64,000 nucleotides of DNA from an uncultured Chloroflexia bacterium (GCA_963809375.1 CAWEJO010000004.1:350850-414849); one strand, 5' to 3'. Counted from the first letter of the stretch, positions 2,094 to 39,556 are shown. Translations and numbers: made by a program. The notes: generated from the letters alone by a model not told the origin.

Positions 2094-3419
2094 CTACGAC
2101 TCGAGTGGGTTGATCACGAGGCCGGTCAGCGGCTTCGGATAGAAGTAGGTCGATTTCTGGGGCATCACGTCGCCCTCGGCGGCGACAGCGGCGATCTCGG
2201 CGACCGGGGTCGGCTCGAGCAGGAAGGCCGCATCGGCGCCATCGGTCCCGGCGTCGACCCAGCCGATCGCCTCGGGCACCGACTTCGTGTACGCGATCCG
2301 GCCGCCCGTGGCGGTGGCGCCCCGGTCGATGCCGCAGAGACGCTCGAGCGCGACCGCCAGCAACGAGACGTCGAGCCGCAGCAGGGCTTCGCCGCCAGCC
2401 GGAAAGATCGGCGCGAATGCAGCCCGGCGGGCGGTCAGGATCGCACCCCCGGCGCGGGTCCACAGCCCGATCCGACCGGCGCCGCCGGCGGCCAGGGTCC
2501 CGGCCCCGAAGCCTCGCTCCAGGGCCTCGCAGGTCGCGGGCTCGACGTCGAACAGGTCGCGGGCAGCCCGCGGCAGGTCGTCGGCCGTCGCGCCGATGCC
2601 ACGAGCCACCCGGTGGGTCGGGAGGACCGTCAGCGGCTCGCCCGCCTCGACGAGGAGCATCAGCACGTAGTCGAACGCCGGGTCCGTCTCGGTCGAGCCG
2701 GTGCGGCGCTCGTCGCGGTAGCGCAGCGCGGTCTCGTAGCGGTGATGTCCGTCGGCGATCGTGACCGGGTCGCGGCCGGCGGCCTCGCGGAGCGTCGCGA
2801 CGGCCGCGCCGTTCGTCTCGTCGTCGGGCACCGCCCAGAGGCGATGGCGCACGCCTTCGTCGTCCCGGACGTCCGCGACGAGCCTCCCGCGCACCCCGGC
2901 GACGACATCGCCGAGCACGCTCGCCGTGGCGCCACCCGGATCCGCATACAGCGCCATGACGCCGCTCAGGTTCGCGGCGGTCGCGCGCATCAGGCGGTAG
3001 CGATCCTCGCGCGGGCCGCTGAGCGTGCGCTCGTGGGGCAGGACGCCTGCTCCCGGCCCGTACGCCTCGAGCCGCACGCGCGCGTAGAACCCGCGCTGCA
3101 CCCGCGTGACGTCCGAGCCGGGGACGGTGTACGACTGCTCGCAGACGTAGACGCTCGCGCGAGGATCCATCCGCAGCGTGCCGTCGGCGCGCCACCGCAT
3201 GAAGAGGCGCGCCGCAGCCCGGTACTTGTCGTCCGGGTCGGTCGCTCCCGACGCGTCGACGGGCTTGTCGATCGCCACGACGTTCCGCGGGTCGCGGGCC
3301 GCCAGAACGGCCCGTTGCGCCGGCGAGATGACGTCGTAGGGCGGGGCGACCACGCGTCCCAGGTCGGGCACGACCTCGGGGCTGTAGCGCAGCGCGCGGA
3401 ACGCGCGGATCTCGGGCAC
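2094..3419 (-). CDS. DUF1015-family protein
   Basis: The GTG start with GGAGG 4 nt upstream gives VPEIRAFRALRYSPEVVPDLGRVVAPPYDVISP..., the characteristic DUF1015 N-terminus. The reading frame is continuous to the TAG at 2094 (441 aa). Upstream in-frame sequence in the track is low-complexity. Confidence 0.6.
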   Translation of the reverse strand: MPEIRAFRALRYSPEVVPDLGRVVAPPYDVISPAQRAVLAARDPRNVVAIDKPVDASGATDPDDKYRAAARLFMRWRADGTLRMDPRASVYVCEQSYTVPGSDVTRVQRGFYARVRLEAYGPGAGVLPHERTLSGPREDRYRLMRATAANLSGVMALYADPGGATASVLGDVVAGVRGRLVADVRDDEGVRHRLWAVPDDETNGAAVATLREAAGRDPVTIADGHHRYETALRYRDERRTGSTETDPAFDYVLMLLVEAGEPLTVLPTHRVARGIGATADDLPRAARDLFDVEPATCEALERGFGAGTLAAGGAGRIGLWTRAGGAILTARRAAFAPIFPAGGEALLRLDVSLLAVALERLCGIDRGATATGGRIAYTKSVPEAIGWVDAGTDGADAAFLLEPTPVAEIAAVAAEGDVMPQKSTYFYPKPLTGLVINPLES

Positions 3420-3747
3420 GCGACCTCCAGGACGGGACCTCGACGCCGCTGGACCCGGAATGGCTGGGGCCGGCGGGCGGACGGGCGATCCGCGGTCAAG
3501 GATACCGCGTCGGGTCCGACCCTTCGAGCCTGCCCCCGGCGGCAGCCGCGGCGCTCGAAAACCTGGGCGCCTCGCCATCCTCCGCCGATCGCGATCAGCG
3601 GCGCTCGCAACCCGGGGCTCCTGCGGTCCGCCGCGCCGACGAATGACGGGGCCACGCGCCTGCGAAACTTTCCAGGGCCATCCGGCGTCCCAATGGCACC
3701 GGCGGCCACGATCGCCGCGTCGTCCGCGCGACCGCAGGGAGGAATTC

Positions 3748-6543
3748 GTGACCAACCGGCGCCGAGCCGCCCCGCTTCCGCCCGCCGCCCTCGGCCGCGC
3801 CGCTCGTCTTCTGGTCCTTGCCGGGCTCCTGGCCGCCCTCGGTGCCGTGCTCCCCGCGATCGCACACGGCGCGCTGGCCGCGGACCCGTCGCCGTCGGCC
3901 TCGCCGGGCGCCTCAGCGGCAGCCGAGCCGGCCGGACTCGGCATGGATGCCCGGGCGCTGCTGCAGGGTCACGCCCGGCCCGGCGCGTGGATGGCCGTCA
4001 ACGTGAGCCTCTCGAACGACGGCCCACCGATCACGGGCGAGCTCCGGATGGTCGGCGGCACGCAGGGGACGACCCGCTTCTCGGTGCCGGTGGACCTCCC
4101 GACCACGTCCCGGAAGTCGTACTCGATGTACATCCAGGCTCCCGTCTTCGGCTCGAAGCTCGACGTGGCCCTCGTCTCCGGCGAGAGGGTCGTGGCGAAG
4201 CGCCAGGTCGCCTTCGCCCTCCACGACGTGAGCCAGCTGAGCGTCGGGGTCGTGGCCGAGCGGCCGGGCGACCTCGTCGCGAGCCTCGCCCGGGTCAGCG
4301 ATCCCACCGCGCCCCGCCCCGCCGTCTTCGGCCTCGTCCCGGCCGACCTGCCGTCACGCCCGGAGGCCTGGGCGCCGGTCGATCGACTGGTCTGGCAGGA
4401 CGTCGACTCGTCCGAGCTCACCCGGGAGCAGATGGCGGCCCTCCGGACGTGGCTCGCCGGCGGCGGCCGCCTCACGATCGTCGGCGGGACGAACGGGGCG
4501 AACGTGCTGGGGGCGTTCCCCGACGAGCTCCTGCCGTATCGCCCCGCCACCACCCTCGACGTGGACCCGAGCGAGCTCCGGGCCCTCGTCGGCGGCACGC
4601 TCCCGGCCAACGCGACGCCCGTCGCGGCCCTCGCCGGCGAGCTCACGCAGGGCCGGGCCATCGCGACGAGCGGCGGCGCGGGCGATCGTCGCCGAGACGA
4701 CCTACGGCTCGGGCGGCGTTGCGATCGTCGGGTTCGACCCGGCCTCTTCGTGGCTCGCCGGGACCGATCGCGCCGACGCCGTCTGGCAGCGCGTGGTGCC
4801 GGCGCGGGCAGGCGCCGCGGGCCAGATCCTCGTCGGGGACGACAGCCCGTTCGTGCAGCTTCTTGGCAACCTGCCGTCGCTCGCCATTCCTTCGATCGAG
4901 GGCCTGCTGCTCCTGCTCGTCGGCTACATCATCCTCGTCGGGCCGGTCAACTACCTCGTCCTGCGCCGCCTCGACAGGCGCGAATGGGCCTGGCTGAGCA
5001 TCCCGCTCATCGTCGTCGGCTTCACCGTCGCGGCGTTCGCCATCGGCAGCTCGCTGCGCGGCAGCAACGTGATCGTGAACCAGGTCGCGGTGGTGCGCGG
5101 CGCGCCGGGCACCGACGCCGCCCAGGCCGAGGTCTTCCTGGGCATCTTCTCCCCCACCCGTTCCACCTACGACGTGACGGTCGGGGCCGGGGCGCTCGTC
5201 ACGGCCCCCGTGAGCGACCCGACCGGGACCGGGACGAGCGGCAACCTCGACGTCATCCAGGCCGACACGGCGACGATCCGCGGCCTGACGGTCGCCTACG
5301 GCTCGATGCGGGCGATGCGCGCCGACTCGACGGTCACCGCGCCAAAGGTTGCGGTCACGCTCGCGGTCCACGACGGGCGCCTGACGGGCACCGTCCGGAA
5401 CGATTCGACGGTTCCACTGGCGAGGGCGACGGTGGTCCTCGGCATGACGGCCGCGCAGGTCGGAGACCTCGCCCCGGGCGCGTCGGCGAAGATCGACGTC
5501 GCACTGCAGTCGGTCGGCGTCCAGGGATCAAATCTGTCGGACCGGGTGTTCGGGCCGCAGGGCGGCGTCATGTTCGACGGCAGCCCCCCGTCGGACTACA
5601 TCCGCGAGATGGTGCGCCGTGGGCTGCTCGACGCGCTCACGTACGACCCGTTCTCGGGCTGGACGGGCACGCTGCCGACGAGCGGGCCGGTCCTCCTGGC
5701 CTGGGGCACGCCCGGGCTCCTCGACGTAAAGGTCGGTTCCGAGAGCCCGGTCACCTCCGGCGAGACGCTCTACTACATCCCGCTCGACTTCAGCATGTCG
5801 GGCCGGACGATCTTCACGCCCGACCTGCTGCGGGTCACGACTGTCGACAACAAGGCCCAGATGTTCCAGAAGGATCCGACCTTCATCGGGATGGGCACCG
5901 GCTCGGTGACGCTCGCCTATCGGCCGATCTCGCTCCAGGGAACGCTCGCGGAGCCGCGCCTCATCATCGCCACCGACACCGGCGACCCGTTCAACATCCC
6001 GACGCCGGCGCAGAAGCTGACGGCCGGTCCGCCCGCCGCGCCCTCTCCCTCGGCCTCCCCGTCACCCTCGGCGTCGCCAGTGGCATCGCCTTCGCCGGGC
6101 GCGTCCTCTTCGCCGGGCGCGTCCTCTTCGCCGGGCGCGCACTCCCGCGCCCTCCTCTCGCCGGGGCGTCTCCCGGATCGCCGTCGCCGGGCGGTCCGGC
6201 CCTGCCGCCCGACTCGCCGCCCCCGACGGACGCGCCCGCGCCGACCGCGTCCGCCGTCCCAACGGTGGCGCCGAGCGACCCGGCCTCCCCCGTCCCGGCG
6301 GCTCCCGTCCCGGCACCCGTGCCTTTCGTTCCGGGCCGGCCTACCTTCGAGCTCTTCGACATCGTGGCAGGAGCGTGGCGCCAGCTGCCGGCCCTGCCGT
6401 CTGGCCAGTCGGTCGAGATCAACGAGGCGGACCACTTCGTCGATCCGGCTTCGGGAACGGTCCTCGTCCGCCTCACGAACAATGACGCCGGCAACCAGAT
6501 CGGGCTCCAGCTCTCCGTCAGGATCGAGGGGACCATCCGATGA
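3748..6543 (+). CDS. large (~930 aa) membrane protein: GldG-like (ABC_transp_aux-type) N-terminal half, a central TM pair, a second extracytoplasmic half with a Pro/Ser-rich linker; reading frame interrupted twice (near 4678 and near 6130-6150)
   Basis: GGGAGG lies 5 nt before the GTG at 3748. The N-terminus is a signal/TM segment (AARLLVLAGLLAALGAVLPAIA), and the block QDVDSSELTREQMAALRTWLAGGGRLTIVGG resembles the GldG/ABC-auxiliary core. After ...AIATSGG the protein continues in the +1 frame (AIVAETTYGSGGVAIVGFDPASS..., TM pair LAIPSIEGLLLLLVGYIILVGPV...WLSIPLIVVGFTVAAFAIG). A second 1-nt frame change inside a PS-rich 18-bp tandem repeat returns it to the frame ending with TGA at 6543, which overlaps the downstream ATG (ATGA). 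Confidence 0.45.
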   Translation: MTNRRRAAPLPPAALGRAARLLVLAGLLAALGAVLPAIAHGALAADPSPSASPGASAAAEPAGLGMDARALLQGHARPGAWMAVNVSLSNDGPPITGELRMVGGTQGTTRFSVPVDLPTTSRKSYSMYIQAPVFGSKLDVALVSGERVVAKRQVAFALHDVSQLSVGVVAERPGDLVASLARVSDPTAPRPAVFGLVPADLPSRPEAWAPVDRLVWQDVDSSELTREQMAALRTWLAGGGRLTIVGGTNGANVLGAFPDELLPYRPATTLDVDPSELRALVGGTLPANATPVAALAGELTQGRAIATSGGAGDRRRDDLRLGRRCDRRVRPGLFVARRDRSRRRRLAARGAGAGRRRGPDPRRGRQPVRAASWQPAVARHSFDRGPAAPARRLHHPRRAGQLPRPAPPRQARMGLAEHPAHRRRLHRRGVRHRQLAARQQRDREPGRGGARRAGHRRRPGRGLPGHLLPHPFHLRRDGRGRGARHGPRERPDRDRDERQPRRHPGRHGDDPRPDGRLRLDAGDARRLDGHRAKGCGHARGPRRAPDGHRPERFDGSTGEGDGGPRHDGRAGRRPRPGRVGEDRRRTAVGRRPGIKSVGPGVRAAGRRHVRRQPPVGLHPRDGAPWAARRAHVRPVLGLDGHAADERAGPPGLGHARAPRRKGRFREPGHLRRDALLHPARLQHVGPDDLHARPAAGHDCRQQGPDVPEGSDLHRDGHRLGDARLSADLAPGNARGAAPHHRHRHRRPVQHPDAGAEADGRSARRALSLGLPVTLGVASGIAFAGRVLFAGRVLFAGRALPRPPLAGASPGSPSPGGPALPPDSPPPTDAPAPTASAVPTVAPSDPASPVPAAPVPAPVPFVPGRPTFELFDIVAGAWRQLPALPSGQSVEINEADHFVDPASGTVLVRLTNNDAGNQIGLQLSVRIEGTIR

Positions 6544-7553
6544 CCGCCATCGTCCGGACCGAGGGACTCGTCAAGCGCTACGCGGGAACCCTCGCCGTCG
6601 CGGGCCTCGACCTCGCGGTGGAGGAGGGCGAGATCTTCGGGATCGTCGGGCCCAACGGCGCCGGAAAGACGACGACGCTGCGAATCCTCGCCACGCTGCT
6701 CGCGCCGACCTCGGGCGACGCGGAGGTTGCCGGCGCATCGGTCCGCCGGAACCCCAACGCGGTGCGGCGGGTCGTCGGGTTCATGCCCGACAGCTTCGGC
6801 GTCTACGACGACATGCGGGTGTGGGAGTATCTCGACTTCTTCGGCCGCTGCCACGGCCTGCCCGCCGACCGGCGCAGGCGGGCCGTGTCCGACCTGCTCG
6901 AGCTGGTGGACCTCGGGGCCAAGCGCGAGGCGTACGTCAACACGCTCTCGCGCGGCATGCAGCAGCGGCTGTGCCTCGCCCACGCGCTCGTCCACGATCC
7001 CGCGGTGCTCGTCCTCGATGAGCCCGCGTCGGGCCTCGACCCGCGGGCCCGGGTCGAGCTCCGCGAGCTGCTCCGCGAGCTCCGGGCGCTCGGGAAGACG
7101 ATCCTGATCAGCAGCCACATCCTGCCCGAGCTCGAGGAGCTGTGCACCAGCCTCGCGATCATCGACCATGGCAAGGTGCTCGCCCAGGGAAGGCTCGCCG
7201 ACATCGAAGCCCGGCTCCGCGTCGGCGCTGTCATCCGGGTGCGCGTCCTCGGCGACGGCGGCGGCCTCGAAGCCGCGCGTGCGCGGATCGCGGCCGAGGC
7301 TGGCGTCGTGGGCGTCGACGAGGCGGGCGATGGGCTGCTCGAGGTCGCCTTCACGGGTGACGACGAAGCGGCCGCGGCCCTGCTGGGGACCCTCGTGCGC
7401 GGGGGCGTGCGAGTCGTCTCGTTCGGCCGGGCGGTGTCCGACCTCGAGGAGCTCTTCCTGCAGATGACCGGCGAACGCGACGTCGAGGCCGGCGAGGTCG
7501 AGACGGCCGAGAGTGTGGCCCCGGCTGCCACGGGCACGGAGGCGCGACGATGA
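6540..7553 (+). CDS. ABC transporter ATP-binding protein (GldA-like, ABC-2 subfamily)
   Basis: Intact 337-aa ORF with Walker A GPNGAGKTT, signature LSRGMQQRL, Walker B VLVLDEPASGLD and H-loop. The start overlaps the upstream stop (ATGA) and the stop overlaps the downstream start. Confidence 0.85.
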   Translation: MTAIVRTEGLVKRYAGTLAVAGLDLAVEEGEIFGIVGPNGAGKTTTLRILATLLAPTSGDAEVAGASVRRNPNAVRRVVGFMPDSFGVYDDMRVWEYLDFFGRCHGLPADRRRRAVSDLLELVDLGAKREAYVNTLSRGMQQRLCLAHALVHDPAVLVLDEPASGLDPRARVELRELLRELRALGKTILISSHILPELEELCTSLAIIDHGKVLAQGRLADIEARLRVGAVIRVRVLGDGGGLEAARARIAAEAGVVGVDEAGDGLLEVAFTGDDEAAAALLGTLVRGGVRVVSFGRAVSDLEELFLQMTGERDVEAGEVETAESVAPAATGTEARR

Positions 7554-8758
7554 GGACACATGTCTCGCTGCTTGCAGCCGGTGTCGGCGCGGTCGCGACC
7601 AAGGAGCTGCGCGGGCGGATGCGCGGCTGGCGGGCGTTCATCTCGCTGACGCTGTACGTGGCCCTGCTGGCCGGGTTCACCATCCTCGTCTACTTCGCGA
7701 TGCGCCGGTCGTACGCGAACGGCGGCAGCTTCGGCGGCACGCCGTTCGCGTCGGCAAGCGTCGGCCAGTCGATCTTCGAAGTCCTGATGGTCATCCAGAC
7801 CATCCTGGTCGTGTTCCTCGCCCCGGCCTTCACCTCCGGCGCGATCAGCCTCGAGCGCGAGAAGCAGACCCTCGACATGCTCGCCGCCACGCCGGTGCCC
7901 AGCCTCGCGATCGTGCTCGGGAAGCTGTTCTCCGCGCTCGCCTTCGTGGGCATGCAGATCCTGGCATCGGTGCCGCTGGTCGCCGTCGTCTTCGTCTTCG
8001 GCGGCATCGCGCCCGACGACATCGTGCGCGGCTATCTCGTGCTGCTGGTGTGCGGTTTCGGGTTCGGCTGCATCGGCCTCGCCCTGTCGTCGATCACCCG
8101 CCGCACCCAGGCGGCGACGGTACTGACCTGGCTGATGGTGCTCGGGCTGACGCTCGGGACCGCGACCATCTTCGCCCTCTGGAACGGCATCGCCGCGCCG
8201 GCCCAGTCGAACATCGGGATGCCGCAGCCGGCTCCCATGGTCGACGACTCGAACGGGGGCTTCGGCGGCTCGACCGGCTCGACGGGAGCGTCGTCGACGT
8301 CGGGCATCCCGCAGCCCCCCGAATGGATCCTGTGGCTCAATCCCGGGGTCGCGATGGGCGACGTCGTGTGCGGCGCTGGCATGGATCCGTACTCGCTCGA
8401 GTGTCGTGGGGTGGCGTTCGCGCTCCACCAGGACGCGGGGCAGGTCTTCAGCCGCGACATGATCATCAAGGGCGGGGCCGCGGGGCTGGTGGGCGGGCCG
8501 GTCAACGTCGGGGTGACGGGCGTGGTCGGTGGCTTCGCGGCCGGTGGGTTCGTTGCCGACCCGACGGCGTCGGCGACCCCGTCCGTCCGAGACCGCCTGT
8601 GGCCCAAGATCGCCGCGGCCTGGCTCGTGGTGTCGCTGCTGCTCATCGCATTCTCGGTCGTCATGGTCCGCCCACGCGGCGCGCGGCGCCGCTCGCTCAG
8701 GCCGGGGCGCCCGCACCTGCGGCGGCGACGCAGCGCGACCCGGGAGACTCCGGCGTGA
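7550..8758 (+). CDS. ABC-2 type transporter permease (GldF-like), 6 TM
   Basis: Intact 402-aa ORF coupled by ATGA to the ATPase. Multiple hydrophobic helices are visible (TLYVALLAGFTILVYF, IQTILVVFLAPAFTSGAI, LVLLVCGFGFGCIGLAL, IAAAWLVVSLLLIAFSVVMV). Confidence 0.7.
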   Translation: MRTHVSLLAAGVGAVATKELRGRMRGWRAFISLTLYVALLAGFTILVYFAMRRSYANGGSFGGTPFASASVGQSIFEVLMVIQTILVVFLAPAFTSGAISLEREKQTLDMLAATPVPSLAIVLGKLFSALAFVGMQILASVPLVAVVFVFGGIAPDDIVRGYLVLLVCGFGFGCIGLALSSITRRTQAATVLTWLMVLGLTLGTATIFALWNGIAAPAQSNIGMPQPAPMVDDSNGGFGGSTGSTGASSTSGIPQPPEWILWLNPGVAMGDVVCGAGMDPYSLECRGVAFALHQDAGQVFSRDMIIKGGAAGLVGGPVNVGVTGVVGGFAAGGFVADPTASATPSVRDRLWPKIAAAWLVVSLLLIAFSVVMVRPRGARRRSLRPGRPHLRRRRSATRETPA

Positions 8759-10760
8759 GGCGACCGCGATCCCTGCGGCGCGGCCGTGCGGTTTCCCGGC
8801 CGCTGGCGGCTCCGATCCTGCCCGCGCTCCCCGCCGAGTCGGCCTCGGACCCGGCGCTGCGGGCCATCCGGGCTGGCCTGCGCCGCCACCGCGACAGGCT
8901 CTGGCTGCGGCGCGCCGCCCGGCGCTGGTGGCGGGTCGTCGCGTCCGTGGCGATCCTCGAGGCGGCCGTCCTGGCAGCCGCGCGGCTGGTCCCGATCGAG
9001 ATCCTGCCGCTGCTGATCGTCGCCATCCCGTTCGGCGGCCTCGCCGTGGCGCTCGTCGCGGGAGCCTTCGCACGACCGACGCTCGGGGCGACGGCCCTCG
9101 CCCTCGACGCCGAGGGCCGCCTGCGCGACCGCGTGGCGACCGCCGTGGCCTTCGCGGCCGCGCCGACGGAGGCGGGCGACGAAGCGCCGCCCGAGGCAGG
9201 CATGCTGGCCCGGTTCGTCCGGCGCCAGCGGGCCGACGCGGCATCCGCGATCGCGACCGTCGCTCCGGACCTCTTCCGGCCGTCGATCGCGCGGCTGCCG
9301 GGCATCGCGACGCTGGTGGCCGCCGCGCTGATCCTGCCGCTGGCCCTCCTGCCGAACGCCATGGACGCCACGATCGCGCGCGACCGCACCATCCGCGAGG
9401 AGGCGGCGCGCCAGGCCGACCGGGTCGAAGCGGTCGCCCGCGAGCTCGAGAAGAAGGGAACCTCGGCCAACGATCCGCGCACGCGCAGCGCGCAGGAGCT
9501 CCGCGACATCGCGAAGCAGCTGCGGGAGCGCTCGTCCGAGCTCGACAAGAACCTGGCCCGCATCGGCGACGCCGAGACCGCCCTGCGCGACCAGCTCGAT
9601 CCCGGCAACGAGCAGCGCGGCGCGGCGCTTGCCGCGCTGAGTCGCGGGCTCTCCCGGGCGGCGACGGGCAACCCGCAGGCGAATCCGGGCGGCGACCCGA
9701 AGACGGCACGCACCGACCTCGAGTCGCTGGCGAACGGGCTCGACAGCAAGTCGAACGCAGACCTGCAGAAGCTTGCCGGCGACCTCTCCGCCCTCCAGCC
9801 GGTCGCGCAGCAGGCGGGTGCGGGGGCCGACGCGGCACTCCGGGCCGCGGCCGATGCGCTCGCCCGAGGGGACCGCCCGGCGGCCGCGGATGCGCTTCGG
9901 CGGCTCGGCGAGACACTCGACAACGCCGATACCGAGGTGCAGACGAACCGCGACCTGGCGGGGGCGGCGGCCCAGCTCCAGGACGCGCGCCGACAGCTCG
10001 CCGACGCCGGGCGGCAGGGTGAAGCCTCGGGGCAGCAGGGCCAGCAGGGCAACGGGCAGCAGGGCTCCGGCCAGCAGGGCTACGGCCAGCAGGGCAACGG
10101 TCAGGCGGGCGCCTCGGGCCAGCCGGGCAACGGCCAGGCGGGCGCCTCGGGCCAGCCGGGCGCCTCGGGCCAGCCGGGCAACGGCCAGGCGGGCGCCTCG
10201 GGCCAGCCGGGCGCCTCGGGTCAGGGCCAGGGGCAGGGCCAGGGCCAGGGCCAGGGCCAGGGGCAGGGCCAGGGCCAGGGGCAGGGCCAGGGGCAAGGCC
10301 AGGGCCAGGGGCAAGGCCAGGGCCAGGGGCAAGGCCAGGGGCAAGGCCAGGGCCAGGGGCAAGGCCAGGGGCAAGGTGCCGGCCTCGGCGGCGGCACGAG
10401 CGCTCGCTACCTGGGCAACCGGACCGGCGGCACCACCAGTCTCGGCCAGCCCACCAACCCCACCAAGCCGTGGACCGTCGGCGCAGACCAGGGCTCGGTC
10501 TTCGCACCCTTCGACCGCGTCGGCAAGCCGGGCGACCCGACCTACATCGCCGGCAGCGGCGGCAACGGCGGGCAGCTCAACCCGGGCTCCACGACCGGCC
10601 AGGGACAGCAGAACCAGGGCATCGTGCCGTACACGAACGTGTTCGCCGACTTCCTCCGGTACGCCCAGGCCAGCCTCGACCGCAGCTACGTCCCGCTCGC
10701 CGTCAAGGACTACGTCCGCGACTACTTCAGCGCGCTCGACCCGACCCAGGAGGCCAAGTG

Positions 10761-10761
<1 letters not shown>
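8755..10761 (+). CDS. membrane-anchored coiled-coil protein with Gln/Gly-rich repeats, (GQ)n tract and conserved C-terminal domain
   Basis: The GTG overlaps the permease stop (GTGA). Three predicted TM segments are followed by a long heptad-like region (EAARQADRVEAVARELEKK...LRDIAKQLRERSSELDKNL...). The low-complexity run GQQGQQGNGQQGSGQQGYGQQGNGQAGASGQP... precedes ~28 GQ dipeptides encoded by (GGCCAG)n. The C-terminal block ends ...YVPLAVKDYVRDYFSALDPTQEAK, and its stop overlaps the moxR start. Confidence 0.5.
10081..10218. repeat. tandem 33/36-bp repeats (GGCAACGGCCAGGCGGGCGCCTCGGGCCAGCCG units) encoding GNGQAGASGQPGASGQP
   Basis: Near-identical units are directly visible between 10081 and 10218, inside the CDS 8755..10761. 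Confidence 0.7.
10219..10380. repeat. hexanucleotide microsatellite (GGCCAG/GGGCAG/GGCCAA)x~27 encoding (Gly-Gln)n
   Basis: An uninterrupted run of GGNCAR hexamers is visible at 10219-10380, inside the CDS 8755..10761. Confidence 0.85.
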
Positions 10762-11765
<1,004 letters not shown>

Positions 11766-11779
11766 CCGGGTCGCAACGC

Positions 11780-12859
11780 GTGGAGCAGGCGAACCGGCCC
11801 GACGCCCCGGCCAGCGCGGCGGCGACGCCGCGCGCGCTCGGAGGCCCCGCAGCCCCCGGTCGACCCGGCGGGGCGAACGCCGGATCGAGCGCCGGATCGA
11901 GCGCCGGATCGAGCGTCGGATCGACACCTGCGACGCCGGGTCGCGAGGGCACACGGGCCGCCTTCCTGCCCTCCGACGTCGACCCGACCGTCTTCGACGA
12001 AGCGTTCCTGCGGAGCCTCGAACGCCTCGTGGTCCTCGTGAAGCGGCCGGTCCGGGGTGGCCTCAAGGGTGGCCGGCGGAGCGTCAAGCGCGGCCAGTCC
12101 GTGGAGTTCGCCGACTACCGCGACTACTCGCTCGGGGACGACCTGCGCCAGCTCGACTGGAACATCTACGCGCGCCTCGAGAAGCTGTTCGTCAAGCTCT
12201 TCATCGAGGAGGAGGACCTGACCGTCACGTTCCTCCTCGACGCATCCGCTTCGATGGCGCACGGCACGCCCGACAAGCTCGTGTTCGCCAAGCGGGCGGC
12301 CGCGGCGCTCGGCTACATCGCCCTCGCGTCCGAGGACCGGGTGACCGTCGCCACGCTCTCGGGGCGGGTCGCCCGGCGGCGCTCGGCGCTGCGGGGATCA
12401 GGCCGCGCGTTCCGCCTCCTGGCGGACCTCTCGGCGATCGAGACGACGCCCGGCCCGACCGACCTCGTGGCGGCCTGCCGGCATGCGGCGGCGCAGCTCC
12501 ACGGGCGCGGCGTCCTCGTGCTCGTGAGCGACCTCCTGGATCCAGCCGCCGACCGCGCGATGCGCGACCTTGCCGGCACCGGCGCCGAGGTCATCGTGCT
12601 CCACGTGCTGGCGCCGGACGAGGTCGAGCCGGACCTCGTCGGCGACCTGCGCCTCGTGGACGCCGAGACGGGGGCGAACGTCGACGTGACCCTCGACCTT
12701 GCGGCCCGCGACCGCTACACCGAACGCGTGCGGGCGTGGCGTGAGGAGCTGGCGGCCCTCGCCGCGCGACGACGGATCGCGTACGTGCCGCTCACCTCGG
12801 ACGTCCCGCTCGCCGACCTCGTCTTCGCCGAGCTCCGGCGCCGGCAGGTCGTCGGGTAG
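11780..12859 (+). CDS. DUF58-domain protein (MoxR-associated, VWA-like)
   Basis: Intact ORF with the DUF58 core GQSVEFADYRDYSLGDDLRQLDWNIYARLEKLFVKLFIEEEDLTVTFLLDASASM, immediately downstream of moxR. Confidence 0.8.
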   Translation: MEQANRPDAPASAAATPRALGGPAAPGRPGGANAGSSAGSSAGSSVGSTPATPGREGTRAAFLPSDVDPTVFDEAFLRSLERLVVLVKRPVRGGLKGGRRSVKRGQSVEFADYRDYSLGDDLRQLDWNIYARLEKLFVKLFIEEEDLTVTFLLDASASMAHGTPDKLVFAKRAAAALGYIALASEDRVTVATLSGRVARRRSALRGSGRAFRLLADLSAIETTPGPTDLVAACRHAAAQLHGRGVLVLVSDLLDPAADRAMRDLAGTGAEVIVLHVLAPDEVEPDLVGDLRLVDAETGANVDVTLDLAARDRYTERVRAWREELAALAARRRIAYVPLTSDVPLADLVFAELRRRQVVG

Positions 12860-12867
12860 GGGCAGCC

Positions 12868-15010
12868 ATGTCGTTCATCGCGCCGCTCGGGCTGCTCGGA
12901 CTGGCGTTCCTGCCGGTCATCGTCGCCTTCTGGATGCTCAAGCTGCGCCGAACGGAGCGCATCGTCGGGTCGACCGTCCTGTGGAAGCGGTTCGGCGAGG
13001 ACCGCGAGGCGAACCAGCCGTGGCAGCGGCTGCGGCGCTCCCTCCTGCTCCTGCTCCAGCTGCTCCTCGTCGTCGTCCTGGCGCTGCTCGTGGCGCGCCC
13101 GTTCGCCGAGCGCCCGGCCGGCCTCGCCAAGGACGTCGTGCTCGTGATCGACGCGTCCGCGAGCATGGCGGCGACCGACGTGGCGCCGTCGCGGCTCGAG
13201 GCCGCCAAGGCGGGGGCGCTCGAGAGGCTGCGCGACCTGCCGGCCGGCGGCCGGGTCAGCGTGGTGGAAGCCGGCGCCGTGCCGCGGGTCGTGGTCAACG
13301 CCACCAGCGACCTCGGGCGGGTCCGGGCGGCAGTCGCCGCCGTGCGGGCCGCGCCCGCGGTCGGGGACATGCCCGCGGCCCTGCGGCTTGCCTCGGGCCT
13401 GGCGTCGCGCTCGGCGGACGCCCAGGTGATCGTGGCGACCGACGCGGCGTTCACCCTGCCCGCGGATCTGCGGGTCGCGGCGCCCGTGTCGGTGGTGGCG
13501 GTCGGCCGCGACCGCCGCAACGTGGCGATCGTGGCGCTCGCGGTGCGCGCCTCGCCGTCGTCGGTCACCCGCTCGGTCTTCGCGTCGGTGGCCAACCTCG
13601 GCGCCGAGATCGCCGCCGTCCGCCTCGAGGTCTACGGCGACGGCAACCTGCTCGAGGCCCGCCAGCTCTCGATCGATCCCGTGACGCGGGCCGACGTGGG
13701 CATCGACGACGTTCCCGCCAACGTCCGGACGATCGAGGTGCGCGTGGTGGGCGGCGACCTGCTGGCCTTCGACGACCGCGCCTGGGCCATCGTGCCGGAC
13801 CAGCGCGCCATCAACGTGCTGCTCGTCTCGGACGGCGACCCGTATCTCGAGACCGCCCTCCAGCTCCTGCCCGGGATCCAGCCCTTCGAGGTCGGCAAGC
13901 AGGGCCTCGCCGCCGCGCTCGCGGAGCGGAGCTACGACGTCCTGATCCTCGACGGCTCGCTCCCGGCGACGCTGCCGCGGATCCCGACGCTGGCGATCGC
14001 GCCGCCGGCCACGAGCGCCCTCGGCACGCTGACGGGCGCACTGACGAACCCGGCGCTCGGCACCCCGAGCCCCGACGAGCCCCTCCTGCGCTACGTGGAC
14101 CTCACCACGCTTCATGTCGCCGCGGCTCAGCGGCTGACGCTTCCCGACTGGGCCCGGACGGTCCTGCCCGGCGCGGCCGGCGACCCGCTTCTCTACGCCG
14201 GCGAGCGCGACGGCATCGCGACCGCCGTCCTCGCGTTCGAGCCGCGACGCTCCGACCTGCCGCTGCAGGTCGCCTTCCCGGTGCTCGTCTCGAACCTCAT
14301 CGGCGCGCTCGCCGGCGCCGCCGAGGCGCCCGAAACGGCGCTGGCCCCGGGATCCCTGGTGACGCTGCCCATCCCGGCCGGCGCCACCGGCCTGCGGGTG
14401 ACGAGGCCCGACGGCACGGCCGTCGAGCTCGTGCCGTCGGTCCCGGGCGGGCTCAGCGCGACCTATGCCGCAACCGACCAGCTCGGGGTCTATGCCGTGG
14501 AGCCGGTCGGCGTGGCAGCATCGCCGGCGCCAAGTGCCGCGACCCCATCGCCGACCCTGAGCGCCGCGACGCCGACGTCCGGCGCGTCGCCGGGCGCCTC
14601 GGCCGGCGCCTCCGCGAGCGTGAACCCGGCGGCGACCGGCCCGACCAGGTTCGCGGTGGACCTCTTCGACGTCGGCGAATTCGACGATCACGCCGGGCGT
14701 CCCGGAGCTGCTGACCGCGGTCGGCGGGCGGGCCGGCGAGGGCGCCGGTCCCGACGCCTCGCCAGGGGCCTCGCCGAACGCTTCTCCCGGTACCTCGCCG
14801 GGCGCATCGCCCGTGACGGCCGGCAGCCCGCCGGAGCGCGCGCCGGCCCGCGACGAGGTCTGGCCGATCGTCGCGGCGATCGCGCTCGTCCTCCTGCTCG
14901 TCGAGATGCTCGTCGCCGAGCGCGACGCATTCGTCCGCCTGCGCCGCTGGCTCGGCGCGCGGGTCGGCCGCCGCCCGAGGCCCGGGACGCCCGTCCGGAG
15001 GGGCACCTGA
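12868..15010 (+). CDS. BatA-type VWA protein (BatA_N double-TM N-terminus, VWA domain, long extension, C-terminal TM); one frame interruption near 14685
   Basis: The N-terminus MSFIAPLGLLGLAFLPVIVAFWMLKLRRTERIVGSTVLWKRF matches the BatA_N/two_anch signature. The VWA MIDAS-like motif VVLVIDASASMAA is present. After ...FDVGEF the protein continues in the +1 frame (STITPGVPELL...WPIVAAIALVLLLVEMLV...) to the TGA at 15010. Confidence 0.6.
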
Positions 15011-18000
15011 TGCCCCTCTCGTTCGCGACGCCCGCCCTCCTGCTGCTCCTGCCGGTCCTGCTCGCGCTCGTCGTTGGCATCCACCTCCTGGCCCGGGGCG
15101 GCTTCGGGGAGGCGCGCTACCGGATCGCGCTCGTGGTTCGCGGCGTCATCATCGGCGCGCTGCTCTTCGCCCTCGCCGGCGCCGCGGTCACGCTCCCGAC
15201 GGACCGCCTGGCAACCGTCTTCGTGGTCGACCTCTCCGATTCGGTCGGCAACGCCGGGCGCCAGCAGGCGCTCGCGTTCGTCCGCGACGCGCTGGCGGCA
15301 CGCCCCCAAGGTGATCTCGCGGGCGTCGTCGCGTTCGGGCGGGATGCCCTCGTCGAGCGCCTGCCCGACGAGCTCGCGGCGATCGACCGGATCGCGTCCA
15401 CGCCGGTCAGGACCGCGACAGACGTCGGCGCCGCGCTCCGGCTCGCCGCCGCGCTCTTCCCGGACGATGCCCAGAAGCGCATCGTGCTGCTCTCGGACGG
15501 GAACGACACCACGGGCTCCGGGCAGGTCGAGGCCGCTCGCGCGGGAGCGCGCGGCGTGACCGTGGACACGCTCCCGATCGGCCTCGGGGGCGCCGACGAG
15601 GTCCTCGTGGAGCGGCTCGGCGTCCCGTCGACCGCCCGCCTCGGCGAGGCGCTCTCGCTGGTCGCGGACATCCGCTCGACGGTCGAACAGCCGGCCACGG
15701 TCCGCCTGTTCGCCGACGGCGGCCTCGTCGACACCACGTCCGTCCAGCTCCCCGCGGGCGTCACCCAGGTCGCCTTCGAGCAGACGCCGGCCGAAGCCGG
15801 GTTCCACCGCTACCGGGTCGTGGTCGAGGCCGGCCGCGACACGTTCGCCCAGAACAACCGTGCCGACGGCGACAGCCTGGTCAGCGGACCGCCGCGCGTG
15901 CTGGTGGTGGCGCCCGAGGGCGACCTCGCTGCCGACCTTGTGACCGCCCTCCGATCGCGCGAGGGGAGCGTGGTCCAGATGCTGCCCGAGCAGGTCCCGC
16001 CGGACGTCGCCTCGCTCATCGGGTTCGACAGCACGGTCCTGGTCAACGTCCCCCGGGCGCGTTTGACCGACAAGCAGCTCGAGGCGATCCGGACGGCGGT
16101 CCGCGACTATGGCAAGGGCCTGGTCATGATCGGCGGCGACGAGAGCTTCGGCGCGGGCGGCTACCGCGACACGCCGATCGAGGCGGCGCTCCCGGTCGAG
16201 ATGCAGGTCCGGAGCAAGCAGAAGCAGCCCGACATCGCGCTCGTGGTCGTGATCGACGAGTCGGGCTCGATGGCGGCCTGCCACTGCAACTCGTTCGACC
16301 GGAGCATGGCCGGCAATCGCCAGCTCGCGGGCGTCCAGAAGGTCGACATCGGCAAGGAGGCGATCCTGCGGGCGGCCGCCGCGATGACCTCGCGCGACGA
16401 GCTCGGCGTGGTGGCCTTCAACGAGGCTGCCCACTGGGTCGTCCACACCGAGCCGCTGGGGGCCGTGACGGACCTCCAGGGCAACCTGTCGGGGATCCGG
16501 GCCGACGGCCAGACGAACATCATGGCGGGCCTCGACGAGGCCGTGAAGTCGCTCGAGCAGACGACCGCCACCCGGCGCCACCTGATCCTGCTGACCGACG
16601 GCTGGTCCACCTCGGGCCAGTACGACGCGATCCTGGCCCGCATGAAGGCCGCCGGAATCACCCTCTCGACAGTCGGCGCCGGCGGGGCGCCAACCCCTTC
16701 CTGCAGCAGCTCGCGGCGCAGGGCGGGGGCCGCTTCTACCCGGCGACCGACCCGTCGACGATCCCGGACATCTTCCTCAAGGAGACGCAGCAGGTCGCGG
16801 GGCAGCAGATCATCGAGGAGAGCTTCTTCCCGACGCTCACCGGCTCGTCGCCGATCATGCGCGGGCTCGACGCCGGGCTGCCGTCGCTGCAGGGCTACGA
16901 CGGGACGACGATCAAGCCGGCCGCCCAGCAGGTGCTCGCCTCGGCGCGGGCCGACCCGGTCCTCGCGCAGTGGCAGTACGGCCTCGGGCGGGCGGTCGCC
17001 TGGACGTCCGACGCCACGGCGCGCTGGGCCCGCAACTGGGTCGGCTGGCCCGGGTTCACGCGGTTCTTCGGCCAGCTCGTGAGCTGGACCTTCCCGGGCG
17101 AGGAATCCGGCGGGATCGAGGCCCGGTTCGTCACGGGCCCAGCCGGCACCACGCTGCGGGTGGAGAGCGTCGGCCCCGACGGATCGCCGCGGGACTTCTA
17201 CTCGACGTCGGTGACGGTGGTCGACCCGGCGCTCGACGAATTGAAGCTGGAGCTCTCCCAGGTCGCGCCCGGCGTCTACGAGGCGCCGATGGGCGAGCTG
17301 ACGTCGGGCGCCTACGCGCTGCGGGTGACGCAGACACGGTCCGGGGCGGCGGCGGTCGGCCGGACGCTCGGCCTGGTGGCGCCGACGCCGGCCGAGTATC
17401 GGCTGCTGGGCACGAACGTGCCACTCCTCGCCGCGATCCGCGCGGCGACCGGGGGCGGCGGTCACGGCGCCGGTCGACGCCTGGCGCCACGACCTGGGCT
17501 CGACGACGCGCGAGACGCCGCTCTGGCCATGGCTCCTCGCCCTCGCGCTCCTCCTCTGGCCGCTCGACGTTTTCCTGCGCCGCGTCGCGATCGGGCGCCG
17601 CGACGTGACCGCAGGGGCGCGCTGGGTGCGGGCGATTCCGGCACGACGTGGGCGCGTCGCGGTCCGCGAGGCGGGCGCAGAGGCGATGCTCGCGGCGCGC
17701 GGACGGGCGGGCTCGAGCGGCGCGCGCAGCGCGCTGGCGACGGCCCGCGAGTCGACGGCCGTGGCAGGATCTGCGGCTGCGGCAGGCTCGGGGGCCACTC
17801 CCGCGCAGACGGCGGCGCCCGGCGACGTGACGCGCACGGCAGCCAGCACCCCTCCGCCGGCCGCTTCCCCGAAGACGGCAGCGCCCGGCGGCGTTGCGAG
17901 CTCGACGGGCGCTGCGGCAACTCCCCCGCCCGGCGCGGCGCCCGGTGGCGTGGCGGGCCCGGCGGCCACCACTCCCCGCCGGCTGGCGCCGCCGGCCCTC

Positions 18001-18149
18001 GTCCGTCGGCAGCTGCCCCGCCGCCGACTGCCGCCACGACCCCGCCAACCGCAGCGGTGACGAAGCCTCCCGCTCCGGCGCCCGCCAGCGGCAGCCCCGA
18101 CGACACCCTCGCCCGCCTCCGCGAAGCGCGCCGCCGCGCCAAGCGATAG
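15010..18149 (+). CDS. large double-VWA membrane protein (BatB-like), at least two frame interruptions (~16690, ~17455)
   Basis: The ATG overlaps the upstream TGA (TGATG). The N-terminal double TM (MPLSFATPALLLLLPVLLALVV...IIGALLFALAGAAV) is followed by VWA#1 VFVVDLSDSVGN and VWA#2 IALVVVIDESGSMAA. The downstream protein-like sequence continues in a second frame (ANPFLQQLAAQGGGRFYP...) and a third (TPLWPWLLALALLLWPLDVFLRR C-terminal TM). The 3' end (18060 vs 18149) is uncertain. Confidence 0.5.
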
Positions 18150-18159
18150 GTGCCCGGGC

Positions 18160-19355
18160 GGCCAAGCGCCGGTTGAGACTGTCCGAGGATCGGAGGCGAC
18201 GTCCGGAGGTGTCGAAGGGCTGCGACTCGCCGAGTAGCCCCGCCAGCGCGCGGAGCTTGCGCATCCAGGCGGGGTGTTCGCGCTCGAGCGATACGAGAGC
18301 GGCCAATGCGTCGGCGCGCCGGCCGGGAGGGTCGAGCCGGGCGAGGAGGACGAGGGCTTCTCCGAGCTCACTTGGCGCCGCGGCCGCGTCTCCGGCGAGC
18401 GACAGGGCTCGTCCCCACGTTTCCTCGTCCTCGTCCGCGAGGTGCCCGAGGCTGCGGGCGGCGGCGGCGCGAGTCCACCCGTCCTCGTGCCCCATCGTCA
18501 CCCGTAGCGCGTCGCGGATCTCTGGGTCGCCGGTCCAGCCGCCGAGCACGGTGGCCGCCCACCGCCGCGCGTAGACGCGCCGCGAGGCGAGATCGGTCAA
18601 CAGCTTGGTGCGCTGCTTCGCCGTCCGTCGAACACGAGGTCGGGGCGTGATCGCGTCGTCGCGGATCGGGCCTCTCGTCTCGATGTGAACGCCGGGCGGC
18701 AGCGCCGCGATGAGTTCCGCGAGCTCCTGGTCGCGCAGCGCCTCCCGCGGGTCCGGGCGTCGCGGCCTGGCGAGTGCCGCGACGATCCGCGCCCGGACAT
18801 CCGCTGCGCCGGCGGCGTCTGCCAGCGCGAGGAGCTCTTCGGCGTGTCCGGGCGCGAGGTTCTCGAGGGGCTCGAAATGCGCCAGGTGTCGGTCGAGGAC
18901 CGCCCGGGCACCGGTGTCCCCGATCGCCGCGATGGCCGCCGGTAGCCCCGTCCGGATCAGCTCAGCGAGTTGCTCCTGGCCGGCCGGGTTGTCGGCATCA
19001 AAGAGGTGCCACTGCTCGCCGCCTGTTGGCCACAGGGCGAGGCTCGGTGAGCCCATCGTGATGTCGTGGACGCCCGGTGGACGGCTCCTGCCGGGCATCC
19101 AGGCCGGCCGCGTGGCGGGAACGGACACGCCGACGCCGATCCTGAACCTGACCTGCGGGTCGTCCTGAGCCTCCTGCGCCTCGAACGGGTCGAGGTGCCG
19201 CCGCTCGAGCGCGAAGACCACCCAGTTGTCACCCTGGCGCCGCCGGAAGACGGGGCCGTAGCCGTCAGGCCTTCGGCGCGCGCGATCGGGGCCACCGATT
19301 TCCGCATCCACGCGGTGAAGGCGTCCGAGCCCCTTCCCGCCATGTGCCCTCCCAA
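18160..19355 (-). CDS. hypothetical protein with HEAT/PBS-lyase-like repeats; frame interrupted near the N-terminus; 3' end uncertain
   Basis: From ATG 19355 the minus-strand translation reads MAGRGSDAFTAWMRKSVAPIARAEGL. After a 1-nt frame change the protein-like sequence continues: GPVFRRRQGDNWVVFALERRHLDPFEAQ...GDPEIRDALRVTMGHEDGWTRAAAARSLGHLADEDEE...LGEALVLLARLDPPGRRADALAAL. The repeated xxRxxAAxxLGxL units resemble HEAT-like repeats. No stop is visible before it overlaps the convergent VWA gene, so the end is approximate. Confidence 0.3.
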
Positions 19356-19430
19356 GACTCTTCGGAGAATGACACGCGCATACCGCCCGGCGCTTCGATC
19401 CTGTCATAGGTACGGTATCCGCGACCGGCT

Positions 19431-25903: not shown

Positions 25904-26966
25904 GACCCCGCCGTCAGGCCTCTTCACGCTCGACGACCTCGCGCGGCGCCGGCTCGACCCGCGGGAGCGCGATCTCGCTGACCCTGGGCACGAACGATGC
26001 CTGCGCCGGTCCGGGCCACCTCGTGCTGCTCGTCCAGCGTCAGGATCCCCAGCCGGCCGAGCGTCGCGAGCTCGTCGCGCATGTAGGTCTTGAGCATCTC
26101 CGGGCCGTCCGTGTTGATGGTGAAGCGGACGCCGTTGCGCCGGAACGTGTCGAAGATCCAGCGGAACTCGTCCCAGCCGGACACGACGCGGGTGTTGAGG
26201 TTCGACGTCGGGCAGACTTCGAGGGTGATGCCGCGCTCGCGGATCATGGCCATGGTGCGCGGGTCGTAGGCGGCCTTGACGCCGTGGCCGATGCGGTCGG
26301 CTCGAGCTGCTCGATGACCTCGGCGATCTCCTCCACCGGGCCCGACTCACCGGTGTGGACGGTGATGCCGAGGTCGTGCCGGCGGACCCGCTCGAAGAGC
26401 CTTCGGTAGTCGCGGACGGAAGTCGGCCGACTCGGGCCCGGCGATGTCGATGCCGACCACGCCGCGGTCGCGCCAGGCGATGGCCTTCTCGGCGATGATC
26501 TCGTTCAGCTCGTACGGGAAGGCGCGGTCGAGGCAGAGGATCAGGCCGGGCGTGACCGGAGTACTCGAGGATGGCCCGATCCATGCCGCGGATGGCGGCG
26601 CTGATGATGTGGTCCAGGTCCTGCTCGCCGCCGCGGTTGCGCTTCATCGGGTTGAAGCGCAGCTCGATCGTGGTGACGTTGTTCTTGCGGTACGCGCCGC
26701 CGATGACCTCGTACACGGAGCGCTCCACGGCCAGCGGGCTCGACTGGATCAGCTCGGTCCAGTGGAACAGCTCGAGGTAGCCGTCGAACGAGCGGCCGCG
26801 GCGCGCCGAGACGGTGATGAGGTCGCGGAACGCCCAGTAGTCCTTGGTCGGCAGGCGGATGCCCTGCGCGTGGGCGATGCCCCACATGATCGCCGGCGTG
26901 ACGGCGCCGCCCAGATGGCAGTGCAGCTCGGTCAGCGGGACCGTGCGCGGCAGGAGGCGACTCATG
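25904..26966 (-). CDS. adenosine/adenine deaminase-family amidohydrolase; frame broken 2-3 times
   Basis: The start MSRLLPRTVPLTELHCHLGGAV carries the metal-binding HxH motif. Later blocks lie in other frames: GITVHTGESGP, ITLEVCPTSNL and FTINTDGPEM (typical ADA C-terminal motifs). The length is not a multiple of 3. Confidence 0.55.
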
Positions 26967-28945: not shown

Positions 28946-29784
28946 CGGGCCCCGTCAGCGGGTCCAACGTCGTCGTCGGCCGCGACCTGCTCGAAGCGAT
29001 CGGCGGGGTACCGAGCACGGTGACCGACGTGGTGGTCGATGCCTCCGGCGTCAACAAGTGGTTCGGGAAGCTCCACGTCCTGCAGGACGTGACGCTGTCC
29101 GTGAAGCGCCAGGAGGTCGTGGTCATCCTCGGGCCGTCCGGGTCGGGCAAGACGACGTTCATCCGGTGCGTCAACCACCTCGAGAAGATCCAGGGCGGCC
29201 GGATCTTCGTCAACGGGCACCTGATCGGCTACCGGGAGGTCAACGGCAGGCTCGTCGAGGACAAGGAGGCGAACATCGCCCGGCAGCGTCAGGAGATCGG
29301 GATGGTCTTCCAGCGCTTCAACCTGTTCCCGCACAAGACGGCCCTCGAGAACATCATCGAGGCGCCCATCCAGGTGCGCGGCACGCCGCGGGACGAGGCG
29401 ATAGCCATGGGCCGGGCCCTGCTGGTCCGGGTCGGCCTGGCCGCGAAGGAGAAGTCGTATCCGTCGCAGCTCTCCGGCGGCCAGCAGCAGCGCGTCGCAA
29501 TCGCTCGCGCCCTGGCGATGAAGCCGGCGCTCATGCTGTTCGACGAGCCGACATCCGCGCTCGATCCGGAGATGATCGGCGAGGTCCTCGAGGTCATGAA
29601 GGAGCTCGCGCGAGAGGGCATGACGATGATCGTGGTCACCCACGAGATGGGCTTTGCGAAGGAGGTCGCAGACCGCGTCGTCATGATGGACGAGGGAGTC
29701 GTCGTCGAGGAGGGCACGCCGGAGCACTTCTTCACGAACCCGACCCACGACCGGACGAAGAGCTTCCTCTCGAAGATCCTCTGA
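28942..29784 (+). CDS. amino-acid ABC transporter ATP-binding protein
   Basis: ATGA overlap with the permease gene. Walker [11 protein letters not shown]-loop, signature [14 protein letters not shown] and Walker [13 protein letters not shown] are present (280 aa). Confidence 0.9.
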
Positions 29785-39305: not shown

Positions 39306-39556
39306 GGGGCGGATGCTACAGGCGCGGGCGACGCGCGACCATCCCGCACGCTCGGCGTCCCGCGTCGCGGAGAGCGGGGCGCGGTGCCATGGCCGGGGCC
39401 GGCTGCTCCCGACGGGCTGCGCCGCGACCGCCCGCCGGTGCCACCGGCCGGGCCGCGGCCCATCAGCGGAACCGGGCGCGACCGCAGGACCCGGCAGCCA
39501 CGACCCGGCGAGTTCCGATACAGTCTCGCGCACGGCTCAGCGGAGGGTGGCAACCG

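Follow-up and report, generated by a model that had tools for sequence, protein, structure and literature searches.

The 64,000-nucleotide stretch of DNA analysed here (GCA_963809375.1, CAWEJO010000004.1:350850-414849, from an uncultured Chloroflexia bacterium; 'the window' below means this whole stretch) carries between positions 3748 and 18149 eight co-directional genes on the + strand, which encode an ABC-2 (type V) transporter and its membrane partners together with a Bat-like module of MoxR, DUF58 and von Willebrand factor A (VWA) proteins. The locus is one copy of a conserved, uncharacterised eight-gene operon that is a hybrid of known modules. Other genomes have it too, and its components are of well-known kinds, but their coupling is fixed across phyla.

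Gene content and layout of the locus

The G+C content of the window is ∼74% and raw lists of open reading frames (ORFs) are crowded with long spurious frames. The coding frame was followed by codon-position G+C (third position, GC3) and cross-checked with Pfam and NCBIfam, an analysis that bore out the eight genes, their order and their coordinates as proposed in a first-pass annotation made from the sequence alone. Gene 1 (3748-6543, two frameshifts) encodes a membrane protein of the DUF4350/DUF7408 type, gene 2 (6540-7553) an ABC ATPase of the ABC-2/type V exporter class resembling DrrA, ABCA and NosF, gene 3 (7550-8758) an ABC-2 permease, and gene 4 (8755-10761) a helical membrane protein of 668 residues without family assignment. 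There follow gene 5 (10761-11765), encoding a MoxR-type AAA+ ATPase, gene 6 (11780-12859), a soluble, VWA-like DUF58 protein, gene 7 (12868-15010, one frameshift), a membrane protein with a BatA_N double-transmembrane (TM) domain and a VWA domain, and gene 8 (15010-18149, three frameshifts), a double-VWA protein with a GATase1-like domain. The sizes first proposed for the products of genes 1, 7 and 8 (∼930, 713 and ∼1000 residues) hold after frame correction, although none of the three is an intact ORF.

The junctions were read directly. Genes 1 and 2 and genes 2 and 3 overlap through ATGA at 6540 and 7550, and genes 3 and 4 through GTGA at 8755, as had been reported. The gene 4/MoxR junction had been given as ATGA at 10761, whereas the sequence there reads TGATG (10759-10763); between genes 7 and 8 the TGATG motif was correctly recognized but lies at 15008-15012 rather than at 15010. 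The earlier picture of genes chained throughout by overlapping start and stop codons is thus true of five of the seven junctions, the remaining two being short gaps of 8-14 nt (14 nt between MoxR and DUF58, 8 nt between DUF58 and BatA). Base composition runs across the locus without a break, and a promoter/terminator scan, uninformative in DNA of 74% G+C, found no terminator-like site on the + strand inside it.

The transporter half

Genes 2 and 3 pass the Pfam thresholds for an exporter ATPase and permease of the ABC-2 (type V) class, in agreement with the first calls. The ATPase matches ABC_tran with 99.3 bits (cutoff 25), has intact Walker A, signature and Walker B motifs, and shows a weak match to DrrA1-3_C; its nearest relatives among solved sequences are the nucleotide-binding domains of ABCA3/4/7/1, NosF and Rv1218c. 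The permease matches ABC2_membrane_2 with 58 bits (cutoff 27.2) and has seven hydrophobic segments, with a Gly-rich insertion of ∼140 residues containing two cysteines ahead of the last TM helix; no solved homologue was found for it by sequence. The more specific proposal of a GldA/GldF-like pair was not sustained. Gene 2 reaches 211.7 bits against the GldA model TIGR03522 (cutoff 402.6) and scores higher against drrA, at 248 bits, itself below cutoff, while gene 3 reaches 37.1 bits against the GldF model TIGR03518 (cutoff 288.5). The length of the permease varies through the insertion ahead of its last TM helix, from 286 residues in Brevibacillus (fetched locus L002, 9137-9997) to 402 in the window and 537 in an Anaerolineae metagenome-assembled genome (MAG; L089, 8391-10004). 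A second ABC ATPase, ∼29% identical to gene 2, is encoded elsewhere in the window (29032-29757, + strand).

Gene 1 had been called GldG-like, a description that survives at the level of the fold but not of sequence families. No match to ABC_transp_aux or GldG was found in the window pieces of gene 1 (Pfam E≤0.01, NCBIfam E≤0.1) or among 34 gene 1 orthologues (E≤0.1). The window piece scores 17.9 bits against DUF4350 (PF14258; cutoff 30.4); weak matches to DUF4350 were obtained for 33 of the 34 orthologues and to DUF7408 for 26, and some orthologues carry precomputed PF14258 assignments. Both models match the same residues (∼186-303) and so describe the same kind of domain. The homologues in Brevibacillus, ∼25-27% identical, carry PF24157 (DUF7408). 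An AlphaFold2 model of orthologue P0199, which is ∼49% identical to the window protein (pLDDT 80.7, pTM 0.79), has an N-terminal anchor helix, a β-sandwich, an α/β domain, a TM helical hairpin and then ∼400 β-rich residues. The α/β domain matches GATase1-like structures and the N-terminal structure of IFT52, that is, the GIFT fold, which is the fold of domains in GldG, IFT52 and OST48. Foldseek against the Protein Data Bank (PDB) returned only β-sandwich matches of low TM score for this model, and a profile search of the gene 1 orthologues against PDB sequences gave no match. Alignment of the gene 1 and gene 8 profiles with hhalign gave a probability of 31%, which is suggestive only. Gene 1 appears to encode a DUF4350/DUF7408-type protein rather than a member of the GldG family, its likeness to GldG being confined to the fold.

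Gene 4

The first-pass description of gene 4 as a 668-residue TM protein with a (GQ)n tract was confirmed by the TM scan and by Tandem Repeats Finder. The protein has three predicted TM helices, a helical ectodomain of ∼225 residues, a disordered G/Q-rich linker and a small C-terminal domain with the conserved motif VPY...LD..IP...KDxVRDYFSxLxP. The tract at 10218-10373 (+ strand; periods 12/18/30 with 87-93% matches) is part of a longer G/Q/S/N-rich repeat region that starts at ∼10030, and G/Q-rich low complexity is retained across the family. Neither Pfam nor NCBIfam has a match to this family, which is small: the protein has 90 detectable homologues, and 360 clusters at 50% identity were found among 1.84 billion representatives. 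A kinship with the DUF4175-type proteins of alphaproteobacterial MoxR operons was considered and dropped, there being no match to TIGR02302 or any other model, and the weakest match to gene 4 (P0080), found in the unrelated setting of an exosortase locus, was discounted as a false positive arising from low complexity.

The MoxR half

Pfam matches support the assignments first made for all four genes of this half. Gene 5 matches AAA_3 with 211.8 bits (cutoff 27) and AAA_lid_2 with 62 bits (cutoff 22.7); its Walker A motif reads GVPGLGKT and its Walker B region VLADEINR in the ORF translation, and there is a weak match to bpMoxR at 35 bits. Gene 6 matches DUF58 with 128.7 bits (cutoff 23.4) and has the metal ion-dependent adhesion site (MIDAS) motif DxSxS as DASAS at residue 154; its exact start is uncertain, the N terminus being of low complexity with a 12-nt repeat (4.2 copies) at 11874-11924. 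Gene 7 matches BatA with 46.1 bits (cutoff 25.9), VWA_2 with 54.7 bits and the two_anch model TIGR02226 with 24.9 bits (cutoff 23.05); its DASAS motif lies at residue 95, and the intact orthologue has a C-terminal TM helix. Gene 8 is built of a double-TM anchor, a VWA domain, a CARDB-like sandwich, a GATase1-like domain into which a second VWA domain is inserted, a β-sandwich, a TM helix and an Arg-rich tail. Both VWA domains were found by Pfam, with MIDAS motifs at residues 74 and 416, and GATase1_like scores 37.6 bits on the frame-0 piece 16686-17438. The DxSxS motif is thus kept in all four VWA-type domains of genes 6-8. Tetratricopeptide repeat (TPR) proteins of the BatC/BatE kind and BatD gave no Pfam or NCBIfam match in the eight proteins or their intact orthologues, nor were any found among the called genes of four complete loci (L001, L002, L087 and L092).

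In an Acidimicrobiales MAG (L086, 6336-9100) the BatA-VWA gene runs on into a second VWA domain as a single ORF of at least 921 residues with a faint DUF7407 match, and genes 7 and 8 may be fused there.

Frameshifts and sequence quality

Frame changes were located by GC3 frame analysis and by tblastn with intact orthologues. There are six, in three of the eight genes. Gene 1 passes from frame 1 to frame 2 near 4680 and returns to frame 1 between ∼6010 and ∼6160; gene 7 passes from frame 1 to frame 2 near 14690 and ends with the TGA at 15008-15010; and gene 8 passes from frame 1 to frame 0 near 16690, from 0 to 1 near 17445 and from 1 to 0 somewhere in 17750-18090, its terminal motif PDDTLARL...* being recovered by tblastn in frame 0 with its end at 18149. 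After every shift in the locus GC3 stays above 0.9 and similarity to the orthologue carries on. The Walker and MIDAS motifs are intact, and the orthologues in L001 and in L002 and L003 have no such interruptions. Moreover, some 20 unexplained switches of coding frame without a stop codon occur throughout the 64 kb, for example, outside the locus, at 19434-21835, 22032-23313, 26011-26957 and 50228-54102 (all on the − strand). A GH94 gene (17131-21834, − strand) is one of those affected: its supersandwich domain matches at 40 of 251 positions before the frame breaks, after which the full catalytic domain resumes. Frame switches across the window, preserved GC3, continuing similarity and intact motifs together make errors of sequencing or assembly the most probable source of the six frameshifts, rather than gene decay. 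Proteins reconstructed from this window accordingly need comparison with intact orthologues.

Several smaller observations belong here. With frame switches spread over the whole window, the likely cause is an error-prone assembly, probably from long reads, and not something specific to the locus. A perfect 18-nt tandem repeat (2.8 copies, 6090-6139) lies in the Pro/Ser/Ala-rich linker of gene 1, and the second frameshift of that gene falls in or beside it. The 1567-residue ORF at 17131-21834 (− strand), which overlaps the tail of gene 8 on the opposite strand, is an artefact that joins the GH94 glycoside phosphorylase (catalytic domain 375 bits; supersandwich domain interrupted by frameshifts) to a HEAT-repeat region (HEAT_2 at residues 1082-1136).

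Conservation of the operon

Relatives of the locus were found through the contigs of gene 4 homologues and by scanning one genome per species with an alignment of gene 8. The scan gave at least 524 species with a relative, the best 80 loci all being of the Limnocylindria type (Chloroflexota). Among these 80, 52 loci reach 10 kb upstream, and all 52 have the eight genes in order by tblastn. The complete order is also present in the Limnocylindria-type MAG L001, in two isolates of Brevibacillus brevis (L002 and L003), where gene 1 is annotated as DUF7408, and in two metagenomic contigs (L087 and L092). In two further MAGs it is held as far as the contig extends, into gene 7, within which the contig ends, in the Acidimicrobiales MAG L086 and up to MoxR in the Anaerolineae MAG L089. 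These loci bear out the proposal that the eight genes form one unit. The DUF7408 branch occurs throughout the genus Brevibacillus and in Ferviditalea, the Brevibacillus proteins being annotated by their sources as hypothetical or 'DUF7408 domain-containing'. The hosts belong to the Chloroflexota (Limnocylindria, Anaerolineae), the Bacillota (Brevibacillus, Ferviditalea) and the Actinomycetota (Acidimicrobiales). Protein identity across these three phyla is 25-35% and the gene order is identical; L001, L002, L003, L087 and L092 all share with the window the ATGA overlaps between genes 1 and 2 and between genes 2 and 3. The best nucleotide identity of the window to any fetched locus is ∼78%, and an exact look-up of its MoxR protein in public assemblies gave no match. 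We regard the identity of the genes and the conservation of the operon as very probable.

Split variants were also found: genes 1-4 only in L088, gene 4 with DUF58, BatA and the second VWA gene only in L085, and genes 1-5, the ABC half plus MoxR, in L090. Gene 4 thus accompanies either half of the operon (L085, L088) and MoxR is able to stay with the ABC half, which argues for a functional link rather than mere adjacency. In every gene 1 context examined, the ABC-2 genes adjoin a gene of the gene 1 type and gene 4. The arrangement is not rare, being the rule throughout a whole class of Chloroflexota and in the genus Brevibacillus at large.

Directly upstream of the operon the window has a divergent DUF1015 gene (2094-3420, − strand), as does L001 (3609-4919, − strand), so that flanking synteny is kept within the clade. 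The contig L092 (ena:ERZ27286121:k141_444002) has a complete operon ∼40% identical to the Brevibacillus version; its protein P0254 is labelled 'Candidatus Bathyarchaeia archaeon' by the source, probably through mis-binning of a bacterial contig, and if the label were true it would mean transfer of the operon into archaea. The variant with genes 1-4 in L088 (19749-21878) lies ∼8 kb from contractile-injection-system genes (Pvc16_N, phage sheath), probably by coincidence.

Predicted topology

Topology was predicted with a Kyte-Doolittle scan and the positive-inside rule. The ABC ATPase, MoxR and DUF58 are without TM segments and should be cytoplasmic. Genes 7 and 8 are predicted to have an anchor whose N terminus lies outside, whose loop lies inside and whose second TM helix leads out again, placing the VWA domains outside, followed by the C-terminal TM helix and a cytoplasmic tail. 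Gene 7 would thereby contribute one VWA/MIDAS domain to the outer side of the cytoplasmic membrane, and gene 8 two plus the GATase1-like domain. Most of gene 1 (β-sandwich, GIFT-like domain, β-rich domains) would likewise lie outside, whereas gene 4 would have a cytoplasmic loop of ∼85 residues, with its helical bundle, flexible G/Q linker and small end domain directed outward. The outward orientation predicted for the VWA domains agrees with that of the BatA-like protein BB0173 of Borrelia, the VWFA domain of which has been mapped experimentally as periplasmic (PMC5700661).

Comparison with known systems

Our literature search found no paper on this operon, no named system to which it belongs and no paper using the name DUF7408, in line with the first-pass view that the arrangement had not been described. 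The statement that GldG-like and MoxR/VWA systems are normally separate is weakened by archaeal operons. Makarova, Galperin and Koonin (2015) identified DUF4350 (arCOG01314) as a homologue of GldG by HHpred, noted its presence with MoxR and secreted vWA proteins in operons of archaea, and suggested a complex for secretion or membrane remodelling (PMC5898192). That prediction is the nearest conceptual precedent. Common to the archaeal complex and our locus are a DUF4350-type protein anchored in the membrane, a MoxR ATPase of COG0714 and vWA proteins outside the cytoplasm; the archaeal complex differs in having Ig-like S-layer-type proteins, and its description includes no ABC transporter, DUF58/BatA pair or member of the gene 4 family.

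In common with the Bat operons of Bacteroides, Leptospira and Borrelia (moxR, DUF58, batA-batE), the locus has a MoxR protein of the AAA_3 family, then DUF58, then BatA-type proteins with a double-TM anchor and MIDAS-bearing VWA domains that are predicted, as shown for BB0173, to lie outside the membrane. It departs from them in the absence of TPR proteins and BatD, in a second VWA protein of ∼1000 residues with two VWA domains and a GATase1-like domain, and in the addition of an ABC-2 transporter, a DUF4350/DUF7408 protein and the family-less helical membrane protein. Its hosts, moreover, come from phyla that we take to be single-membrane. With GldA/GldF/GldG and the related ABC_tran/ABC-2/ABC_transp_aux clusters it shares an ATPase and permease of the ABC-2 class and a membrane-anchored accessory protein with an outward α/β domain of the GATase1-like/GIFT fold. 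It differs from them in that each of the GldA, GldF and GldG models either scores far below its cutoff or gives no match, a DUF4340 partner is missing, and the accessory gene stands first and encodes an internal TM hairpin and ∼400 extra β-rich residues. NosDFY offers a mechanistic analogy only: there an ABC-2 pump, whose ATPase NosF is near gene 2, cooperates with a partner outside the cytoplasm to assemble a complex on the envelope side. Homologues of NosD and NosL are lacking from the locus, which has no connection with nitrous oxide reductase either, and the resemblance is one of architecture, implying no membership.

A possible mechanism

We think it probable that the operon unites two parts, a Bat-like membrane module of MoxR, DUF58 and VWA proteins and an ABC-2 (type V) transporter whose accessory protein has the GIFT fold, a judgement that strikes a compromise between our high confidence in identity and conservation and a much more tentative view of mechanism. 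To our knowledge, MoxR/DUF58/VWA modules are among the most widespread bacterial clusters without a mechanism, and GldG-type ABC-2 systems are equally unexplained. Two such modules hard-wired in one operon, in an order constant in three phyla and with two families found only in this operon, lead to the concrete hypothesis that the two are physically coupled. A platform for metal-dependent binding could arise on the membrane's outer side from the outward-facing MIDAS and GIFT-like domains together with the helical tether. MoxR, with the soluble DUF58 protein as a cytoplasmic adaptor of the VWA type, would assemble or remodel the membrane VWA proteins from the cytoplasmic side; with VWA domains that face outward, such a role depends on DUF58 or on the cytoplasmic tails. 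For the ABC-2 pump and its accessory protein, gene 1, two roles are conceivable: export towards the platform of an envelope component that is hydrophobic or polymeric, or transmission of ATP-driven movement to the platform through gene 1. Taken as a whole, this scheme of platform, MoxR remodelling and ABC-2 delivery or motion is possible, with the odds leaning against it.

In its strongest form, which we hold to be rather doubtful, the operon would encode a hitherto unrecognised envelope machine whose two motors, ABC-2 and MoxR AAA+, are linked obligately by the gene 4 tether and the DUF4350/DUF7408 protein, so as to build, export or anchor a surface structure held by three outward MIDAS sites. 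If true, this would add a new kind of system for envelope biogenesis or secretion, and MoxR/Bat systems would for the first time have a defined task. Cultivable Brevibacillus as a host, a genus with strains in use in the laboratory and for making proteins, renders the role of these systems more testable.

Several points weigh against the reading that we think probable and the mechanism attached to it. The split variants L085, L088 and L090 show that the halves can be encoded apart. The breadth of the scan is that of the best 80 loci, which are the closest, wider breadth coming from single look-ups. The topology rests on a simple hydrophobicity scan, and MoxR is unable to touch outward VWA domains directly. 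Lastly, the attribution of the frameshifts to error is an inference from sequence.

Alternative explanations

Two alternatives concern the sequence itself. In a sequence as error-prone as this one an assembly join might have created a chimeric locus, which the first-pass annotation had itself named as a possible objection; the same order, however, recurs in more than 55 independent assemblies and in isolate genomes, ruling out both a join and a chance juxtaposition, and no composition break is seen, so that an explanation already refuted by conservation retains practically no probability. The six frameshifts might instead be real and the locus a decaying pseudogene cluster, as their presence in three of the eight genes and their occurrence at sites that are not all long homopolymers could suggest. 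We consider this distinctly unlikely given similar switches window-wide, the GH94 gene included, and the retention in the affected genes of GC3 periodicity, motifs and similarity beyond each shift, with no in-frame stops. The nearest loci are moreover same-clade MAG contigs that are long-read to judge by their 'MFD...bin...contig_' names, a style of naming associated with error-prone long-read assembly.

The remaining alternatives accept the operon and differ in what it is for. An ABC-2 exporter operon and a Bat-like operon of MoxR and VWA genes could be functionally independent, merely neighbours that are co-transcribed, as the variants limited to genes 1-4 (L088) or to gene 4 with DUF58, BatA and the second VWA gene (L085) would allow, and each type of module is generally known alone elsewhere, as Bat operons and GldAFG-like clusters. 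An identical order in three phyla at such low protein identity, the association of gene 4 with either half, the presence of MoxR with the ABC half in L090 and the constant company of gene 1, gene 4 and the ABC-2 genes make this unlikely in our estimation. Somewhat less improbable, though still to be doubted, is a stress or oxygen-tolerance function like that of the Bat systems of Bacteroides, Leptospira and Borrelia, with VWA proteins driven by MoxR and the ABC transporter only an accessory exporter. The common core of MoxR, DUF58 and a BatA_N-VWA protein with an outward-facing VWA domain speaks for it, but it names a phenotype rather than a mechanism, that of Bat itself being unexplained, and it has to contend with the missing TPR and BatD matches and with two extra operon-specific families that are strictly kept. 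A MoxR-vWA conflict or anti-phage system as in multicellular bacteria is very improbable. Such ternary systems exist (PMC7159879), and the MoxR protein has its weak bpMoxR match; against this, PADLOC returned no specific match, only generic ABC-ATPase similarity and a weak TRIP13 match of 18.9 bits, the operon is without effector, β-propeller or NTPase sensor domains, and its retention in a whole class is vertical and near-universal, with synteny extending to the flanking DUF1015 gene.

Other genes in the window

Elsewhere in the window, at 39389-43075 on the + strand, a large signalling protein is encoded in which a double zinc ribbon occurs together with an adenylate/guanylate cyclase domain and an ATPase domain of the AAA_16 family.

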